Positions 2,519-25,435 of a stretch of DNA of 31,985 nt are shown here, one piece after another. A program made the position numbers and the translations under genes. The notes under the pieces were generated by a model. The model saw only the letters and a list, made by a program, of their open reading frames with translations. It did no database searches and had not been told where the DNA came from. The first letter of the stretch is position 1. Every line of letters starts with the position of its first letter. Source of the stretch: a virus. Its lineage: Duplodnaviria; Heunggongvirae; Uroviricota; Caudoviricetes. The DNA lies in IMG/VR virus record IMGVR_UViG_2565956620_000001, positions 1 to 31,985 of that record; one strand, 5' to 3'.

Positions 2519-3015
2519 CAGTGATGACGCTCAATCTCGTTGAAAAACAGCCAGCAGCTATGCGCCGGATAATTGGCAAGCATCTTGCCGTCCCTCGCTG
2601 GCAGGATACATGTGATTATTATAATCAGATGATGGAGCGCGAACGGCTAACGGTTTGCTTTCATGCACAGTTAAAACAGCGTCACGCAACGATGCGTTTT
2701 GAAGAAATGAACGACGTCGAACGTGAACGACTGGTATGTGCAATTGATGAATTGCGTGGCGCATTCTCAAAACGCCGTCAGGTTGGCGCAAGTGAGCATG
2801 CATATATTAGTTTTTTAACAGTCAGTCAGCGTCGTACTTTATTTATGCACGCCGGATTGACAGAAAAAGAATTTAATCAGCCATACTGGCGAATTAATGA
2901 AGAGTCATGTTACTGGCGTGATGCTTTATTCCGTGCATTACGTGAATTATTCAGCCTGTTTGAGTATGCACCGACAATTCTGACGTCGGTAAAACCAGAG
3001 CAATATCTGCATTAA
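2515..3015 (+). CDS. B: Replication protein B-like (166 aa)
   Basis: Position upstream of A and length equal to P2 gpB as I recall; start overlaps the upstream stop. Confidence 0.6.
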   Translation: MTVMTLNLVEKQPAAMRRIIGKHLAVPRWQDTCDYYNQMMERERLTVCFHAQLKQRHATMRFEEMNDVERERLVCAIDELRGAFSKRRQVGASEHAYISFLTVSQRRTLFMHAGLTEKEFNQPYWRINEESCYWRDALFRALRELFSLFEYAPTILTSVKPEQYLH

Positions 3016-3078
3016 GTAATTAACCAGAGTTTTTAACGCACTTAATTGTGCGGGGCTTCTTTTTGCCTGGAGAAAGTC

Positions 3079-3303
3079 ATGCATACAGTTTCTGAAAATC
3101 AGTGCGGTATATACGCATTACTGCTGCAACAGGCCAGAACCGAAGCACAGGCCGACGCTGCGACGCGCTTTTCTTCTCATCTTGATGCCATGATTCGCCA
3201 CATCACAAAGGCGGAGTTATCCCGCGTGGAGATAGTCGAGCTGCTCAGTCAGGAGTCGGAAAAATTTCACAATATCGGATTGTCTCGCGGGGAGGTGCTT
3301 TGA
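3079..3303 (+). CDS. Hypothetical protein (74 aa)
   Basis: GGAGAAAG RBS before ATG at 3079. Confidence 0.45.
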
Positions 3304-3602
3304 TGTCCTGTTCTCATTCAGTTGTATTACTGAATAACGCCTTAAAAATCGCCGTTATGAAAAATGGCGATTTGTCTCTTATTCAACTTTGTCTTGATAA
3401 AGAAAAACGCGACATCACTGAATCTGTTATCGCGATTTATCAGAATGAATTAAACCTCCTGTCTGATGTGGTCAATTTACTTGTTAAACGCGCTGTATTC
3501 CACAAGCAAATTTCCTCAGTGGATGAACTGACAAAATTAACGACAGAACTTGCCAGTTATTGCGCTGATGTATCCAGGAAACTTAACGATAAAAGGAGCT
3601 GA
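3303..3602 (+). CDS. Hypothetical protein (99 aa), AT-rich
   Basis: GGAGG RBS; ATG overlaps the upstream TGA (TGATG). Confidence 0.5.
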   Translation: MSCSHSVVLLNNALKIAVMKNGDLSLIQLCLDKEKRDITESVIAIYQNELNLLSDVVNLLVKRAVFHKQISSVDELTKLTTELASYCADVSRKLNDKRS

Positions 3603-3604
3603 TA

Positions 3605-3829
3605 ATGCCGGACAACGTAGATTTTATTCAGGAACAACAGGCTGAATTACTGGAGCGCCAGATTAACGCGGCAAGGGTAAAACATTGCGGTGCTTCTGCG
3701 CTGGTTTGCGAAGAGTGTGACGCGCCAATACCTGCTGCCCGTCGTGCGGCTTATCCGTCAGCCACGCGTTGTGTTTCCTGCCAGTCAGTCTTTGAAGCAA
3801 AAAACAAGCATTACCGGAGAATGGCATGA
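3605..3829 (+). CDS. TraR/DksA-family C4 zinc-finger protein (74 aa)
   Basis: CEEC-x17-CVSC spacing typical of TraR/DksA zinc fingers; AAGGAG RBS. Confidence 0.7.
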   Translation: MPDNVDFIQEQQAELLERQINAARVKHCGASALVCEECDAPIPAARRAAYPSATRCVSCQSVFEAKNKHYRRMA

Positions 3830-4101
3830 GTATTCGTATTGAAATTGGCGAACGTTATGTCGTTACCAGTGACAGCTTTCAGTTTATTCTCCACGAGAAA
3901 AAGAGAGCGGAAAGCGGTAAAAACGCCGGTCAGGAATGGCTGGCGGTGGTTGGTTATTATCCGAAATTAAGCCAGCTCGTTTCCGGCCTGATGCATCACG
4001 ATATTCTGACCGGAAGCGCAAAGTCTTTTGCTGATTTAAACGCGCAGGTTGAGCAACTCAGCAGGCGTTGTTCAGAGGCTTTTGGCTCATATGGCCGTTA
4101 A
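3826..4101 (+). CDS. Hypothetical protein (91 aa)
   Basis: ATGA overlap with the upstream gene; GGAG RBS. Confidence 0.5.
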   Translation: MSIRIEIGERYVVTSDSFQFILHEKKRAESGKNAGQEWLAVVGYYPKLSQLVSGLMHHDILTGSAKSFADLNAQVEQLSRRCSEAFGSYGR

Positions 4102-6581: not shown

Positions 6582-7757
6582 ATGAAAAAAAACTCGGTAG
6601 GTGTGGAGGATAAATTAAAACATAAAGCAGTTCAATATATTAATATTGAAGATCTGGAGCTTGATGTTGAAAACCCCCGCTTTGGTGAAGACTCTTCTTC
6701 ATCTGATACACAAGTTGATGTGCTGAATAATATTGTTAAAAATTATGGCGTTACTGATGTAATAAGTTCTATTGCAGTGAATGGTTATTTTTCTGCTGAG
6801 CCAATGGTGGTGAGGAAAAATAATAATAAGAAATTCACTGTAATGGAAGGTAATAGAAGGCTGGCTGCCTGTCTTATACTTAAAAATGATGACAGAGCAA
6901 GAGATCAAGTTAATCTGCATCAACAGTATATTGATAAATACAATTCTCATGGGTGCCCTAAAATAGACCCAGTTCCAGCAATAGTTTTTGAAGACGATGA
7001 TGGTGTAGATAAAAAATCACTTATATCATATTTAGGTGTGAGGCATATCGTATCTACAAAGGATTGGGATTCATACGCTAAGGCTGCATGGATATCTCGA
7101 ACCATCAAGGAAGGAGATATGAGCGTATCTGATATTTCCACTATGATTGGTGACCGTAATAGCACTATAAAAAGACTTTTGTCTGGATATAATTTCATTA
7201 AACAAATGGAGTCTGCTGGGAAGTATAATAAAGATGATAGTGTGAAGAAAGGGAGAGGGAGCAATACTAGTTATCCATTCTCGTGGGTTTATACATTGCT
7301 GAGTTATAAGAGTATTCAGGATTTTGTGGGCTTATCAGATAATCCTACAGACCCTAATCCAATAGATGAAAAGAAATTGGATAATGCGAAGCTTCTAATG
7401 ACAGCTATGTTTGGTAATAAAAATAAAGGACAAAACTCACAAGTTAAAGACTCTCGTAATCTTGGTGTCTTGGCTGAGATAGTTGCTTCTCCAGAAAAAG
7501 TTATACTGCTCAAGCAAGGCAAGGATGTTGAAGACATTAATGACCTAACTCAGCCAATCGGCGATAGGTTGACTAGTTTAATGTTAGAAATTAGAAGTAA
7601 ATTGGACGAATGTCTTACGAGGGTAGGGCGTGAAGATTTACCAATGCAGGATGCTATTCAACTTAATATATATCTTGAGCAAATAAGTAAACAATTTAGA
7701 TCTTTTAGAGTATCAATTAATGAGGCTATTACTGGAAGTGATAGTGAGGGTTTTTAA
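6582..7757 (+). CDS. ParB/sulfiredoxin-like N-terminal domain protein (391 aa), hotspot cargo
   Basis: GGGGAGGGG RBS; N-terminal signature IEDLELDVENPR ... SIAVNGYFSAEPMVV ... FTVMEGNRRLAA (GNRR at 6849..6860) typical of the ParB N-terminal fold; AT-rich. Confidence 0.7.
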   Translation: MKKNSVGVEDKLKHKAVQYINIEDLELDVENPRFGEDSSSSDTQVDVLNNIVKNYGVTDVISSIAVNGYFSAEPMVVRKNNNKKFTVMEGNRRLAACLILKNDDRARDQVNLHQQYIDKYNSHGCPKIDPVPAIVFEDDDGVDKKSLISYLGVRHIVSTKDWDSYAKAAWISRTIKEGDMSVSDISTMIGDRNSTIKRLLSGYNFIKQMESAGKYNKDDSVKKGRGSNTSYPFSWVYTLLSYKSIQDFVGLSDNPTDPNPIDEKKLDNAKLLMTAMFGNKNKGQNSQVKDSRNLGVLAEIVASPEKVILLKQGKDVEDINDLTQPIGDRLTSLMLEIRSKLDECLTRVGREDLPMQDAIQLNIYLEQISKQFRSFRVSINEAITGSDSEGF

Positions 7758-7759
7758 TT

Positions 7760-8716
7760 GTGAATTATGGTTTACGCTCTAAAATGCAGGGATTCGCAAC
7801 AGATGCGGATCAAGCAGAATTTAATGCATTACTTGATGTTAGCGCGACAATAGACTCAGGAATTGAGGATGATAAAATTGCTGGAACTATCTATGATGAG
7901 TTAGAAAATTTAGATGGTCATTTGGAAGAAGAATGGATGATGGAAGATCAGGGAAAGGAGCTTTTAGTTGGTCAGATTGCCGAGCATATACAATGGAGAG
8001 CAAAGGTTTTGGATGATATGTATCCATTTGAATATAAAGAAAATCATCTAACATTAAAGGAGTCTCCTTCCCTTGTTTATCTGTTTTGCTTATGTGTCTC
8101 TGTAATTAATAATTTAACAAAAGGAGATAATGTTAAGTTGCCTAGATTTTTTGAAGTTATGGCTGGGCGATTATTCACAAAATTTTTTAGTTCACACGCA
8201 AAACACATGCATACTGGTTGGCCTCGTTCAAATGGAAATCCTAGTAGTTATAAGGAACTAGCTTATAAACTGAACTCTTCGATCTCACCAAATACAAGAG
8301 AATGGTCTTGGCGCGTAGAGAATGGCTTAAGAGATGAGGATGCATTGAGAATTAAAGATTGTGGTGTGGATTTTGTTACATGGGTTGATTTTTTGGATGG
8401 TAGAGATGGACGTTTATTTGCTTTAGGGCAATGCGCTTGTGGTAATGATTGGCCAACAAAGTTTCAGGATATTAAAATTGAAAGGTTAACACCATGGTTT
8501 CATCCATTAACTTACATTAAGTGTGTTAAAGTTTTCTCAACACCTTATGTGTTAGTTGATGAAATGATAAGAGAAGCAAGCGCAGAAGCTGGAATTATAT
8601 TTGATCGAGTCCGTTTAACTATTGCATATGAGCGTTTTAAGGATGAATTTGGTGATATGCAGGATGAGTTAGATGCGTTAATTACCTTTTGTAAAGAATT
8701 AAAAAAGGCCCAGTGA
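7760..8716 (+). CDS. Hypothetical protein (318 aa), coupled partner of the ParB-like gene
   Basis: GTG start 3 nt after the upstream stop with GTGAGGG upstream; same AT-rich composition; no motif I can recognise. Confidence 0.55.
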   Translation: MNYGLRSKMQGFATDADQAEFNALLDVSATIDSGIEDDKIAGTIYDELENLDGHLEEEWMMEDQGKELLVGQIAEHIQWRAKVLDDMYPFEYKENHLTLKESPSLVYLFCLCVSVINNLTKGDNVKLPRFFEVMAGRLFTKFFSSHAKHMHTGWPRSNGNPSSYKELAYKLNSSISPNTREWSWRVENGLRDEDALRIKDCGVDFVTWVDFLDGRDGRLFALGQCACGNDWPTKFQDIKIERLTPWFHPLTYIKCVKVFSTPYVLVDEMIREASAEAGIIFDRVRLTIAYERFKDEFGDMQDELDALITFCKELKKAQ

Positions 8717-8722
8717 TGGGCC
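8701..8722 (-). terminator. Hairpin GGCCCA-gtga-TGGGCC followed by a T6 run on the minus strand; terminator between convergent genes
   Basis: Stem 8707..8712 / 8717..8722 spans both stop codons; A6 at 8701..8706 is a T-run for the minus-strand transcript. Confidence 0.5.
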
Positions 8723-8723
8723 A

Positions 8724-9707
8724 TTACCATATATCAGGGATGTTTCTCACAACCGCTTCAAACAAAGGTGGTGGAACTGCATTACCTACGACCTTATATC
8801 TCTCTTTTAACATCCGTGCGGCCCCAAAACTATCCATGTCAGGAAAAGTTAGATAACCACCATGATTGGTATATTCTTTACTAAACCCTTGCAGAATCGC
8901 CGCTTCTTTATAAGAGAAGCGTCTGGCTGGCGAGTTTGTTATAAACTCCCACTTGTCTATACCCACTTTTTTTAATTCGGGGCTGATGGGATGCAAGGGA
9001 ATATGACGAAGATTACTTACGATAGTTTTACTAACTTCGTCCCAGTTGCGGCGTCTATTCCTAGATAAATAGTACCAGTGAAATGGGTCATCACAAAACT
9101 CACCGATTGGCCATTCAGGTAATCCCTTTAGTGCTTCACCGATTGTTACATAAGGTAATGATTTTTCCTCACCATGTGTGGCTTCAGGGAATTTATATTC
9201 TAGGTCGAAGTCGTTACGAATACCTACAATTATTAATCTCTTACGCTCTTGCGGTACACCGTAGTGGTGAGCTTTGAGTATATTCCAAACAACTTTATAG
9301 CCTATATTACCAGCATTGGAGAAGCGTTTTATTTGATCATCGAGTAGATGCTTAAATGTACTATTTCTCATACCTGAAACATTTTCGACAATAAATGCTT
9401 TAGGTTGAATATTGGTTAATGCACGTGCAAACTCTTTATATAAAAAATTTATACTCCTGTCCGCAAGACGTGCGCCACCTTGGCTAAATCCTTGGCATGG
9501 ATAGCATCCAACAAGAAGGTCTGCACTCGGAAATTTTTCAACTTCTCGGATATCTTGGATTAGGTAATCTGTTTCTGGTAGGTTTGCGAGATAAACCTCT
9601 CTCGCATATGGCAAAATATCGTTTGCCATAACGATGTCGAAACCAGCTTTGCTTAATCCAGCATCGGAACCACCACAACCCGAGAACAATGATACAGCTT
9701 TTGGCAT
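8724..9707 (-). CDS. C5-cytosine DNA methyltransferase (327 aa)
   Basis: Motif I FSGCGG, motif IV PCQ (Cys codon 9497..9495), motif VI ENV, motif VIII QERKR, C-terminal GNAV; ATG at 9707 with GGGGGAG RBS preferred over the TTG at 9731. Confidence 0.85.
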   Translation of the reverse strand: MPKAVSLFSGCGGSDAGLSKAGFDIVMANDILPYAREVYLANLPETDYLIQDIREVEKFPSADLLVGCYPCQGFSQGGARLADRSINFLYKEFARALTNIQPKAFIVENVSGMRNSTFKHLLDDQIKRFSNAGNIGYKVVWNILKAHHYGVPQERKRLIIVGIRNDFDLEYKFPEATHGEEKSLPYVTIGEALKGLPEWPIGEFCDDPFHWYYLSRNRRRNWDEVSKTIVSNLRHIPLHPISPELKKVGIDKWEFITNSPARRFSYKEAAILQGFSKEYTNHGGYLTFPDMDSFGAARMLKERYKVVGNAVPPPLFEAVVRNIPDIW

Positions 9708-9914
9708 TTTCTCCCCCTGATAAACCGGCAAGAGTATAGCTTTTTATATGGCTACTGCATACATCATCCTTATAAATGGCAGTTTCTGGTGTATGCATGG
9801 ACGTGAATTTTTTTGCATGCATTAGCTTTACTTATTTGAAGTATTGTCCGTGACGTCTGGCGCGCTTCCAACGTATTCATGAAACTGCATTAAAAGCGCC
9901 CCATGAAGCGGGCG

Positions 9915-21846: not shown

Positions 21847-23366
21847 CAGTGAAATACTACGCCATTCTGACTAATCAGGGCGCAGCACGGCTGGCTAACG
21901 CGACGATGCTCGGCAGTAAGCTGAATCTGACGCAAATGGCCGTTGGTGATGCGAATGGTGTCTTACCGACACCAGACCCGGCACAGACAAAACTGATTAA
22001 CCAGAAACGCATCGCGCCGCTGAATCTTCTGAGTGTTGACCCTAACAATCAGAGCCAGATTATTGCGGAGCAAATCATCCCTGAAAACGAGGGCGGATTC
22101 TGGATCCGTGAGATTGGACTTTATGATGATGAAGGCGTACTCATTGCGGTGGCGAACTGCCCGGAAACGTACAAACCGCAGTTGCAGGAAGGCAGTGGTC
22201 GTACCCAGACTATCCGCATGATTCTGGTTGTCACGAACACCGAAGCCATCACGCTGAAAATCGACCCGGCTGTGGTACTGGCAACACGTAAATATGTGGA
22301 TGACAAAATTTCTGAGCACGAACAGTCACGACGCCACCCGGACGCCTCGCTGACCGCAAAAGGTTTTACTCAGTTAAGCAGTGCAACTAACAGTACATCT
22401 GAAACACTGGCCGCAACACCGAAAGCGGTAAAGGCTGCATATGACCTGGCTAACGGGAAATATACCGCTCAGGATGCGACTACGGCACGAAAAGGCCTTG
22501 TTCAACTCAGTAGCGCCACAAACAGCACGTCTGAAACACTGGCTGCAACGCCAAAAGCGGTCAAGGCGGCGTATGACCTGGCTAACGGGAAATATACCGC
22601 CCAGAACGCCACCACGACGCAAAAAGGGCTTGTTCAGCTCAGTAGTGCAACCAACAGCACATCTGAAACACTGGCTGCAACGCCAAAAGCGGTAAAGGCT
22701 GCATACGACCTGGCTAATGGAAGACAACCGGCAAACGCCATACTCACTGCTCTGGCAGGGCTTGCTACAGCGGCAGATAAACTCCCTTATTTTACAGGGG
22801 TAGATCGTGCCGCGTTAACTGCACTGACAAGTGTTGGTCGTGCAATTCTTAGTAAGCCCAGCACACAGGGAGTTCTTGATTATCTTGGTTTGGGAGAAGG
22901 CTCTGCATTGCCTGTTGGTGTACCTGTTCCGTGGCCCTCCGCAACCCCGCCAACGGGCTGGCTGAAATGCAACGGCGCTGCCTTTGATAAGGTGAAATAT
23001 CCCCATCTTGCTACAGCATATCCATCAGGGAAACTACCTGATCTCCGTGGTGAGTTTATTCGTGGATGGGATGACGGGCGTGGTATTGATGCAGGACGTG
23101 CTTTATTGAGCATTCAGACTGGGATGCTGGAAAAACACCGCCATATTGTTGTTGCCAACGATGGGTATGATTCAAAAGAGGAATGGGAACTGGCGACAAT
23201 CTTCAGAAGAGCATATACGCAAGGCCGGGGGCTTGATGCTGCCGATGCCGGAGGAACTCTGATTCCATCACCAACGCTACATACACGAGGGAGTATTGGT
23301 AACACAGGTGGGAGCGAAACCCGTCCACGAAATATTGCATTTAACTATATCGTGAGAGCTGCATAA
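21843..23366 (+). CDS. H: Tail fibre protein H (507 aa) with internal tandem repeats and a collar-type C-terminal domain
   Basis: P2 H-like N-terminus; C-terminal PDLRGEFIRGWDDGRG motif; synteny. Confidence 0.85.
   Translation: MTVKYYAILTNQGAARLANATMLGSKLNLTQMAVGDANGVLPTPDPAQTKLINQKRIAPLNLLSVDPNNQSQIIAEQIIPENEGGFWIREIGLYDDEGVLIAVANCPETYKPQLQEGSGRTQTIRMILVVTNTEAITLKIDPAVVLATRKYVDDKISEHEQSRRHPDASLTAKGFTQLSSATNSTSETLAATPKAVKAAYDLANGKYTAQDATTARKGLVQLSSATNSTSETLAATPKAVKAAYDLANGKYTAQNATTTQKGLVQLSSATNSTSETLAATPKAVKAAYDLANGRQPANAILTALAGLATAADKLPYFTGVDRAALTALTSVGRAILSKPSTQGVLDYLGLGEGSALPVGVPVPWPSATPPTGWLKCNGAAFDKVKYPHLATAYPSGKLPDLRGEFIRGWDDGRGIDAGRALLSIQTGMLEKHRHIVVANDGYDSKEEWELATIFRRAYTQGRGLDAADAGGTLIPSPTLHTRGSIGNTGGSETRPRNIAFNYIVRAA
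22359..22721 (+). repeat. Three tandem copies of a 132-bp (44-aa) unit inside H, third copy truncated
   Basis: Unit KG(F/L)(T/V)QLSSATNSTSETLAATPKAVKAAYDLANGKYTAQ(D/N)ATT.. beginning at 22359, 22491 and 22623. Confidence 0.9.
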
Positions 23367-23968
23367 TGGATAAAGCCGTATTAAATAGCGAACTTATTGC
23401 CACGAAGGCGGGGAATATTACCGTCTATAACTATGATGGTGAAACACGGGAATATATTTCCACTTCAAATGAATATCTTGCCGTTGGTGTCGGTATCCCG
23501 GCATATTCCTGTTTAGATGCTCCTGGCACATATAAGGCGGGTTATGCTATCTGCCGTTCTATGGATTTAAAATCATGGGAATATGTGTCAGACCATCGTG
23601 GTGAAATTGTCTATAGCACCGAAACAGGTGAATCAAAAGAAATCAAAACTCCGGGTGATTACCCTGAAAATGCAACCACTATCGCCCCGTCAACGCCATA
23701 CGATAAATGGGATGGTGAGAAATGGGTGACGGATACCGAGGCACAGCATAGCGCCGCAGTAGATGCAGCAGAAGCACAGCGCCAGTCACTGATTGATGCA
23801 GCAATGGCTTCCATTAGTCTGATTCAGCTGAAATTACAGGCCGGGCGGAAACTGACGCAGGCAGAAACAACCCGGCTTAACGCTGTGCTGGATTACATTG
23901 ACGCTGTGACGGCAACAGATACCAGCACCGCGCCTGATGTTATCTGGCCTGAACTGCCGGAGGCGTAG
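23366..23968 (+). CDS. G: Tail fibre assembly chaperone (200 aa)
   Basis: TAATG overlap with H; position downstream of the fibre gene. Confidence 0.75.
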   Translation: MDKAVLNSELIATKAGNITVYNYDGETREYISTSNEYLAVGVGIPAYSCLDAPGTYKAGYAICRSMDLKSWEYVSDHRGEIVYSTETGESKEIKTPGDYPENATTIAPSTPYDKWDGEKWVTDTEAQHSAAVDAAEAQRQSLIDAAMASISLIQLKLQAGRKLTQAETTRLNAVLDYIDAVTATDTSTAPDVIWPELPEA

Positions 23969-23977
23969 GCCATTCAA

Positions 23978-24022
23978 TATCTGGAGCACTGGAAATTTCG
24001 ACAAGTTCCAGTGCTCCAGATA
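23978..24022. repeat. Perfect 15-bp inverted repeat TATCTGGAGCACTGG / CCAGTGCTCCAGATA with a 15-nt loop
   Basis: Arms at 23978..23992 and 24008..24022, 10 bp after the G stop; no T-run follows. Confidence 0.8.
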
Positions 24023-24152
24023 ATCGACTGTGTGGGAACAGGCAGGACGATTGCTGGCTGCGAGGGAATCACGTCAACGTGTGGCGCTGATTTTTGATAT
24101 TGACCTGTCCACGCTCTATAAAAAATTCGCCTCATCAGCGACAAAGAATAAA

Positions 24153-24180
24153 TTGTGCCATCCATCAGCCAACCGGGACA
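24153..24180 (+). promoter_or_regulatory. Late-promoter activator element upstream of FI: TTGTGCCATCCATCAGCCAACCGGGACA
   Basis: Close match to the P/O element; lies 65 bp upstream of the FI ATG. Confidence 0.45.
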
Positions 24181-24244
24181 AATAGCCTGACATCTCCGGC
24201 ACACATGAAAATACCACTCACCCATTAACCACGGAGTTAAACGG

Positions 24245-25435
24245 ATGAGCGACTATCATCATGGCGTGCAGGTGCTGGAGATTAACGACGGCACCCGCGT
24301 CATTTCCACTGTATCCACCGCCATTGTCGGCATGGTCTGCACGGCCAGCGATGCGGATGCGGAAACCTTCCCCCTCAATAAACCGGTGCTGATTACCAAT
24401 GTGCAGAGCGCAATTGCAAAGGCCGGTAAAAAAGGCACGCTGGCGGCGTCGTTACAGGCCATCGCTGACCAGTCAAAACCGGTCACCGTTGTTGTGCGCG
24501 TGGAAGACGGCACCGGCGACGACGAAGAAACGAAACTTGCGCAGACCGTTTCCAATATCATCGGCACCACCGACGAAAACGGTCAGTACACCGGACTGAA
24601 AGCCCTGCTGGCGGCGGAGTCGGTAACCGGTGTTAAACCGCGTATTCTCGGCGTGCCGGGACTGGATACCAAAGAGGTGGCTGTTGCACTGGCATCAGTC
24701 TGTCAGAAGCTGCGCGCTTTCGGGTATATCAGCGCATGGGGCTGTAAAACCATTTCTGAGGTGAAAGCCTACCGCCAGAATTTCAGCCAGCGTGAGCTGA
24801 TGGTCATCTGGCCGGATTTCCTCGCATGGGATACGGTCACCAGTACCACCGCCACCGCGTATGCCACTGCCCGTGCGCTGGGGCTGCGCGCTAAAATCGA
24901 CCAGGAGCAGGGCTGGCATAAAACGCTGTCCAACGTTGGGGTGAACGGTGTTACCGGCATCAGTGCATCTGTATTCTGGGATTTGCAGGAGTCCGGCACC
25001 GATGCTGACCTGCTTAACGAGTCAGGCGTCACTACGCTGATTCGCCGCGACGGTTTCCGCTTCTGGGGTAACCGTACCTGCTCTGATGACCCGCTGTTCC
25101 TCTTTGAAAACTACACCCGCACCGCGCAGGTGCTGGCCGACACGATGGCTGAGGCGCACATGTGGGCGGTGGACAAGCCCATCACCGCAACGCTGATTCG
25201 CGACATCGTTGACGGTATCAATGCCAAATTCCGTGAGCTGAAAACAAACGGCTATATCGTGGATGCGACCTGCTGGTTCAGCGAAGAATCCAACGATGCG
25301 GAAACCCTCAAGGCCGGAAAACTGTATATCGACTACGACTATACACCGGTGCCTCCTCTCGAAAACCTGACCCTGCGCCAGCGTATTACCGATAAATACC
25401 TGGCAAATCTGGTCACCTCGGTTAACAGCAATTAA
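24245..25435 (+). CDS. FI: Contractile tail sheath protein (396 aa)
   Basis: Synteny and P2-like length; GGAG RBS. Confidence 0.9.
   Translation: MSDYHHGVQVLEINDGTRVISTVSTAIVGMVCTASDADAETFPLNKPVLITNVQSAIAKAGKKGTLAASLQAIADQSKPVTVVVRVEDGTGDDEETKLAQTVSNIIGTTDENGQYTGLKALLAAESVTGVKPRILGVPGLDTKEVAVALASVCQKLRAFGYISAWGCKTISEVKAYRQNFSQRELMVIWPDFLAWDTVTSTTATAYATARALGLRAKIDQEQGWHKTLSNVGVNGVTGISASVFWDLQESGTDADLLNESGVTTLIRRDGFRFWGNRTCSDDPLFLFENYTRTAQVLADTMAEAHMWAVDKPITATLIRDIVDGINAKFRELKTNGYIVDATCWFSEESNDAETLKAGKLYIDYDYTPVPPLENLTLRQRITDKYLANLVTSVNSN

Follow-up and report, generated by a model that had tools for sequence, protein, structure and literature searches.

Tail-fibre inversion cassettes of the Gin/Cin/Pin type are represented by the G segment of phage Mu with its invertase Gin, the C segment of phage P1 with Cin, and the P segment of the e14 element with PinE, which are the named relatives of the cassette type considered here. 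In Mu a fibre gene and an assembly gene are followed by a reversed assembly gene, a reversed fibre end, and an invertase on the same strand, and this is also the order of the present cassette type; the P segment of e14 with PinE has the same layout as the cassette of the P2-like phage KC618326.1 (referred to below as L001). The invertases of the intact relatives have the domains typical of inversion systems, Resolvase plus HTH_7, and L001, e14, and a P1-like plasmid (L091) share one family of crossover sites resembling TTCTC..AAACC NN GGTTT..GAGAA. According to a 2024 preprint (10.1101/2024.10.15.618418), the Z/fun hotspot of P2-like phages often contains invertases and tail-fibre genes that are swapped or inverted, and active inversion has been shown in P2-like prophages of EPEC (PMC4272514). 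This kind of element is already known, and the instance analyzed here is already annotated as pseudogenes in public genomes.

The window, by which we mean the whole stretch of 31,985 nucleotides that was analyzed, is a complete P2-like E. coli prophage as judged by its gene content and Pfam matches. It begins at the left end with an integrase, continues with replication protein A and the portal and capsid genes, and carries the tail genes V, W, J, I, H, and G, followed by FI, FII, E, T, U, and D. The features in and around the interval between G and FI are as follows.

22873..22898, no strand assigned: orphan cix/pix/gix-like crossover site in H (TTCTTGATTATC TT GGTTTGGGAGAA), from a consensus scan and position
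23366..23968, plus strand: gene G, tail-fibre assembly protein, intact (200-aa ORF; Pfam Caudo_TAP, 116 bits)
23940..24025, minus strand: 3' remnant of G', the reversed second tail-fibre assembly gene, about 25 codons (translation and alignment with L001)
23978..24022, no strand assigned: inverted repeat with perfect 17-bp arms (23978-23994 and 24006-24022) and an 11-nt loop
24023..24025, no strand assigned: junction of a 1263-bp deletion (BLAST against L001, of which 2738-4000 is missing)
24030..24185, plus strand: 3' remnant of a serine DNA invertase, C-terminal HTH only, 51 codons (Pfam HTH_7; identity to the invertase of L004)
24148..24176, plus strand: predicted binding site of the activator Ogr at the late promoter P_F (alignment to P2, NC_001895, 17555-17583)
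24219..24221, plus strand: predicted transcription start of the F operon (FI, FII, E, T, U, and D), mapped from P2 17626-17628
24245..25435, plus strand: gene FI, tail sheath (396-aa ORF; Pfam Phage_sheath_1 and Phage_sheath_1C)

An identical gene G is annotated by RefSeq in a 100%-identical prophage (L002). With the G stop at 23968 and the FI start at 24245, the interval comprises 23969-24244, the 276 bp given by a first-pass annotation made from the letters of the window; its position between G and FI, upstream of P_F, is that of the Z/fun hotspot of P2, as that annotation had also proposed. We conclude with high confidence that the interval is the stump of a deleted Gin/Cin/Pin-type tail-fibre inversion cassette, that is, of a host-range switch. 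The structure of the stump, its homologies, and its deletion junction can be read directly from the sequence; the mutational mechanism is what we infer from them.

Gene fragments and the late promoter between G and FI

Pfam searches and the RefSeq annotation revealed no intact ORF with a family match in the interval, only two pseudogene fragments. The earlier statement that it held no credible gene was correct insofar as no intact or functional gene is present, and overlooked these two recognisable fragments. When the whole 276 bp was used to search 5426 complete E. coli genomes, it was found in 29; in such carriers RefSeq/PGAP annotates two partial pseudogenes, at window coordinates 23940-24014 on the minus strand ('tail fiber assembly protein, missing N-terminus') and 24033-24185 on the plus strand ('helix-turn-helix domain-containing protein, missing N-terminus').

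The minus-strand fragment is the 3' end of G'. It is frameshifted by a 1-nt deletion, and its translation ends ...ALELVEISSAPDIEWPTPPAVQAR, matching the C-terminus ...ALELVDTSGAPDIEWPTPPAVQAR of the intact G' of L001. The 3' ends of G and of the G' remnant overlap by 29 bp (23940-23968), the same overlap as in the intact relatives. Over these positions the opposite strands of one DNA carry the last codons of both convergent assembly genes.

The plus-strand fragment matched HTH_7 with 27.8 bits (cut-off 23.8) over residues 2-35 of its 51 aa, and 46 of 50 residues (92%) were identical to residues 132-181 of the invertase of strain FDN-24 (L004), an intact protein of 181 aa with both Resolvase (152 bits) and HTH_7 domains. 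The recombinase of an inversion system has both domains; the window keeps only HTH_7, the catalytic domain having been deleted, and the lost part includes the region of the gene that in P1 cin contains the annotated Fis-dependent recombinational enhancer. One of the four replacements in these 50 residues is a G>D change in the DIGLSTLY motif, which fits relaxed constraint or decay. The 3' end of the invertase (24026-24150) was found in 581 of the 5426 genomes, the deleted form in 29, and the matches sampled outside the window type were all annotated as recombinase family protein.

We consider it extremely unlikely that the 51-codon HTH ORF (24030-24185, GTG start), or an 83-aa ORF on the minus strand (23974-24225), is a real small gene encoding, for example, a stand-alone DNA-binding regulator. 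The HTH_7 match does exceed the Pfam cut-off, the reading frame runs uninterrupted to the native stop, and 29 genomes retain the arrangement; however, the GTG start is a mechanical one, 5 nt from the deletion junction and with no Shine-Dalgarno sequence upstream, the G>D replacement by our own reading of the motif affects the turn glycine of HTH_7 and is accompanied by three others in 50 residues, and PGAP calls the ORF a partial pseudogene. The 83-aa ORF had no Pfam match and lies antisense to the G' and invertase remnants.

The right end of the interval carries P_F. Homology to phage P2 proper starts at 24153, and the two sequences are nearly identical from there to the FI start codon; from TTGTG onward the activator site is identical to that of P2 at 20 of 24 nt by our own count. 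Both a P2-homologous activator site and a start are present, and P_F activity is predicted from them. The activator site overlaps the last codons of the invertase remnant, whose stop codon (24183-24185) lies downstream of the start of the promoter region. We mapped the Ogr site by alignment because P_F is imperfect in P2 itself (TGT-N12-CCA); a search of the window for exact TGT-N12-ACA gave one match, fewer than expected by chance and elsewhere than P_F. A sigma-70 scan of 23500-24700 gave no promoters. Two weak terminator-like hits in the same region, one of them in the ALIFDI codons of the invertase remnant, were rejected since they equal the chance expectation. The Ogr-activated P_F thus appears, from its alignment, to have been kept unchanged in the stump.

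Together, the G' stump, the invertase stump, and P_F account for all of the 276 bp. The description of the interval as an empty hotspot therefore could not be sustained, as it is filled from edge to edge by the 3' end of G', the HTH end of the invertase, and P_F, and it contains no accessory gene for lysogenic conversion or defence of the kind found in Z/fun-type hotspots.

The other hotspot of P2, which lies between the portal gene and replication gene A (window 6582-9731), is occupied. It contains a 391-aa protein that matches PD-Lambda-5_A defence models in its N-terminal part (67 bits), a 318-aa protein of no assigned family, and, on the minus strand, a Dcm-type C5 cytosine methyltransferase (Pfam DNA_methylase, 201 bits).

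The intact cassette, its crossover sites, and the 1263-bp deletion

In the phage collection, the sequences that best matched the right-hand part of the interval had a DNA invertase directly upstream of FI. The intact relative L001 (KC618326.1), a P2-like phage of E. coli O157:H43, has the order H, G, G' (minus), Hv' (minus), crossover site, invertase, and FI, with the following coordinates in L001.

578-2077: H
2077-2679: G
2651-3094, opposite strand: G', the second assembly gene
3115-3429, opposite strand: Hv', the alternative fibre end
3572-4066: invertase
4221: start of FI

BLAST aligned window 23307-24025 with L001 2018-2737 at 91% identity and window 24025-24400 with L001 4001-4376, and the window is colinear with L001 except for L001 2738-4000. 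Lost with these 1263 bp were Hv' in full, the greater part of G', the right crossover site, and 429 bp from the 5' end of the invertase gene. An inversion system has an alternative fibre C-terminus and an assembly gene in reverse; here about 25 frameshifted G' codons are left and Hv' is absent. The reverse proposal, that the 276-bp arrangement is ancestral and G', Hv', and the invertase were inserted later in the relatives, was contradicted by the truncated reading frames.

The junction is common to 29 E. coli genomes, including a diverged one (NZ_CM128561.1, L003), and in the alignment shows microhomology of at most 1 nt. From this we propose that the deletion arose by illegitimate recombination, although so little microhomology leaves the mechanism of deletion not evident. 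Invertase-mediated deletion between pseudo-sites was considered and rejected, the sequences at the junction being unlike the crossover site. For the window prophage, no direct parent still carrying an intact cassette was recovered. Identity to the intact comparators is only 91-95%, which makes the exact sequence before the deletion and the order of events a reconstruction.

Two of the comparators have defects of their own. In L001 the invertase (3572-4066) is frameshifted near its 3' end, giving 165 aa with a C-terminus not readable as HTH, and judged by its sequence the 'intact' cassette of this phage may also be non-functional. In L003 (3275-4496) a further large deletion fuses a truncated FI to a truncated D, and the prophage, which is next to fieF/pfkA, is strongly decayed.

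The two L001 crossover sites, one inside H (1610-1640) and one before the invertase (3474-3504), form a perfect inverted pair of 31 bp containing TTCTCGCATACCTTGGTTTGGGAGAA and its partner. Searches of the window with the left L001 site, exact or allowing three mismatches, gave no match; the diverged site at 22873 was detected by a consensus-scoring scan. Its full sequence (22873-22898) is TTCTTGATTATCTTGGTTTGGGAGAA; it agrees with the consensus TTCTCNNAAACCNNGGTTTNNGAGAA at 16 of 20 positions, and by our own arithmetic about 0.01 such matches are expected per 32 kb. The site lies at the junction of the constant and variable parts of H and is position-homologous to the left L001 site at 1614, and homology to the variable part of L001 resumes exactly there. 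The presence of a crossover site at this break in homology suggests a past exchange of the variable fibre end at that point. The site shares an identical inner half, GGTTTGGGAGAA, with intact cassettes and differs from them in the outer half. A 14/20 match at 9543 was discarded as a crossover site because it was at chance level, about one being expected.

Two crossover sites each were found in L001, in e14 (L006 and L008), and in the P1-like plasmid L091; among the deletion carriers examined, the window, L003, and L010 have one site only. The window accordingly lacks the two inverted 26-bp sites that flank the segment of an inversion system. On sequence grounds these 26-bp cix/pix-like sequences are the true recombination sites of the cassette, one of them orphaned and the other deleted. 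Left with a single site and with neither a catalytic domain nor alternative genes, the switch is dead, and the tail fibre is fixed in one orientation.

We propose the following history. The ancestor would have carried the constant part of H, a crossover site, the variable part of H, and G, then a reversed G' and alternative H variable part, and, beyond the reversed modules, a second crossover site, a serine invertase, and P_F of FI. A single illegitimate deletion of about 1.26 kb would then have stripped the invertase of its catalytic domain and eliminated the right crossover site, the alternative H end, and most of G'. After G' had died, deletion of one bulged base (1 nt) and the paired changes A>T and C>A would have converted an imperfect palindrome in its remnant into a perfect one.

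The inverted repeat: geometry, origin, and possible role

The repeat at 23978..24022 is real and is located where the first-pass annotation had placed it; its perfect arms are 17 bp rather than the 15 bp reported there. Arms of 20 nt, separated by a 5-nt spacer, still show 95% complementarity. It is the biggest local inverted repeat of the 32-kb window, and by our own arithmetic about 1e-4 perfect 17-bp repeats of this kind are expected by chance per 32 kb. Folded as RNA it gave -34.3 kcal/mol (z = -5.3), and a tighter 62-nt stretch gave -29.3 kcal/mol (z = -7.0); in neither case did any shuffled sequence fold as well. The stem starts 10 nt past the G stop. Sequence inspection and a terminator scan agreed with the earlier observation of no trailing T-run, none being found 3' of the stem on either strand, where the plus strand reads ATCGACTGTG and the minus strand TTGAATGGCC. 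Of the two hallmarks of an intrinsic terminator, the hairpin therefore has the stable GC-rich stem-loop (-29 to -34 kcal/mol, z -5.3 to -7.0) and lacks the U/T-tract directly 3' of the stem, and the terminator scan made no call there. A scan of the whole window against Rfam gave no families.

The hairpin lies wholly within the G' stump. Read on the minus strand, its right arm codes for YLD(A)LE and its left arm for SSAPDI, both in the conserved C-terminal motif of tail-fibre assembly proteins; the two coding stretches come close to being reverse complements of one another, and the region is 87-94% identical to the tfaE/tfaP junction of e14. A search with 23960-24028 found the hairpin sequence at 3235 places in 2214 of 5426 E. 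coli genomes; nearly all of the places sampled lay under two convergent assembly genes, the hosts being e14 (tfaE/tfaP), CPS-53 (yfdK), P2-like prophages, and P1-like plasmids.

These results bear on the proposal of the first-pass annotation that the interval represents an unfilled cargo slot of the Z/fun type, with the repeat as a recombination site or scar of the gain and loss of accessory, for example defence, genes, which we regard as very unlikely and already largely refuted. In its favor, the G-FI locus is a recognized hotspot (10.1101/2024.10.15.618418), P2 homology begins only at 24153 with everything to the left variable, and the deletion endpoint abuts the repeat. However, in the relatives compared the repeat is within gene G', not at a cargo boundary, and it also occurs in e14, CPS-53, and P1-like plasmids, all without a Z/fun-type slot; the cassette has its recombination sites in the 26-bp cix-like sequences, and gene remnants and the promoter explain the whole interval. 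In addition, P2, with Z/fun at this locus, lacks the repeat, an absence of the kind that the first-pass annotation had itself named as counting against its proposal: the spacer between G and fun(Z) in P2 showed no similarity to the hairpin or to the intact cassette and no coding remnant. The earlier alternatives of a scar or a recombination site thus come apart, since a scar there is, that of the 1263-bp deletion, whose endpoint adjoins the repeat, whereas the repeat itself is G' coding sequence and not a place where cargo was gained or lost.

Quasi-palindrome correction mutations, which arise by template switching, and palindrome-associated deletions occur in E. coli. In the intact copies examined, the element is 48 nt long, with one additional base in the right arm that forms a 1-nt bulge and is the wobble base of a D/E codon. 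Among 21 hairpin variants from 90 loci, 20 were of this bulged 48-nt form, and the window type alone was 47 nt and perfect. L003, which shares the deletion junction and is about 10% diverged from the window, keeps the bulged hairpin. Relative to L003, three changes distinguish the hairpin of the window lineage (about 26 genomes at 99% identity or more, L002 and L010 included), and each improves pairing: the bulged base is missing, 23997 has changed from A to T, and 24003 has changed from C to A. The last two positions face each other in the stem, and both changes are unique to the window lineage. We conclude that the inverted repeat is a G' coding quasi-palindrome corrected to perfection, and its perfection would be the signature of quasi-palindrome correction by template switching. 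Because the loss of 1 nt shifts the frame, the perfected hairpin would have been tolerated only in an already fragmentary gene, and in the reconstructed order its perfection followed the 1263-bp deletion.

The deletion has its left endpoint 1-3 bp from the hairpin base and may therefore have been promoted by the hairpin. A P1-like plasmid (NZ_CP034959.1, L009, 3000-3100), compared with the intact L091 (3001-4136), has an independent deletion extending from the base of the same hairpin into cin, in which U', Sv', cix, and the C-terminal part of cin are gone. Its left endpoint is the last base of the hairpin (after CCAGATAA), followed by about 30 bp of unaligned filler. As aligned, the two cases, L009 and the window, are suggestive of hairpin-associated deletion.

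The origin of the hairpin as a fossil of G' is compatible with a present function, and we consider it possible, though on the unlikely side, that it is a working RNA element, either a terminator or a stem-loop stabilizing the 3' end of the late V-W-J-I-H-G transcript, which in intact cassettes would act as a barrier against transcription antisense into the silent G'/Hv'. Its very stable stem follows the G stop by only 10 nt, in an interval without another convincing terminator, and a stable hairpin (-18.5 to -30 kcal/mol) has been kept in all relatives; the P2 record annotates a putative V-operon terminator between G and the next gene, and in phage Mu a GC-rich stem with an A-run and T-rich flanks lies exactly between U and U'. 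Against termination stands the missing U-tract: intrinsic terminators need one for efficient termination, so this is not expected here, and no harm would come of read-through into the late F operon, which has the same orientation. Nor did the 21 variants from 90 loci show compensatory covariation, the commonest alleles having A.C and C.A mismatches. In stability the natural sequences exceeded 96.8-99.7% of recodings that used synonymous codons for the same peptide, a result that amounts in effect to one observation because all copies share ancestry; the recodings themselves averaged -12 kcal/mol, indicating that the peptide motif predisposes to a hairpin and that the natural codons strengthen it. 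Given this stability relative to recodings, the hairpin may not be a pure coding accident. A 3' stem-loop role in the late H-G mRNA is plausible from the position of the stem and from the P2 and Mu parallels. Selection for a stronger stem is a possible cause of the hairpin's perfection.

A broader proposal would make the quasi-palindrome a conserved functional hairpin of e14-, CPS-53-, P1-like, and P2-like cassettes, serving both as a barrier to transcription or RNA decay between the expressed and silent fibre modules, comparable to the intergenic hairpin of Mu between U and U', and as a recurrent breakpoint at which the cassette is deleted and the fibre locked. We consider this proposal unlikely; the points in its favor are the stability relative to recodings, the 3235 places at which the sequence occurs, and the two independent deletions with endpoints no more than 3 bp from the hairpin base.

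Relation to known systems

What appeared to be an empty hotspot with a mystery repeat is, in the reading we prefer, a decayed host-range switch, and the misreading carries a caution for hotspot surveys in that P2-like phages put their G-FI locus to mixed use, about one tenth of complete E. coli genomes carrying an invertase cassette there. For the specialist, the points of interest are a prophage tail fibre now locked in a single orientation, and a hairpin that looks like a natural quasi-palindrome made perfect once the coding constraint was lost, with possible hairpin-associated deletion endpoints.

The interval has the same position as the P2 Z/fun hotspot and the same right boundary, just upstream of the P_F activator site. 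In contrast to P2, it has neither fun(Z) nor defence cargo, and the P2 interval with its putative V-operon terminator shares no sequence with it. The hairpin resembles an intrinsic terminator, as it is a strong GC-containing stem-loop and follows directly on the last gene of an operon; it differs in having no U-tract on either strand and, at 17 bp, a stem longer than is typical.

In Mu, U and U' are set apart by a short intergenic GC hairpin, whereas in the window there is overlap between the assembly genes, and the hairpin forms part of coding sequence. The Mu spacer between the convergent U and U' is 28 bp long (33503-33530; 2004-2031 in L092) and contains the stem AGGCCCG ATAG CGGGCCT. With its A-run and T-rich flanks, it looks like a bidirectional terminator at the center of the G segment.

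The window resembles known quasi-palindrome corrections in the removal of a bulged base and in a paired change at facing stem positions, and it resembles palindrome-associated deletions in having endpoints at the hairpin base, seen in two independent elements; the correction is read here from a comparison of natural sequences rather than from a measured mutation spectrum. Compared with the Gin/Cin/Pin systems themselves, the system in the window is dead, with one crossover site left and its alternative genes and catalytic domain deleted, and its cassette is situated in a P2-like prophage, between G and FI.
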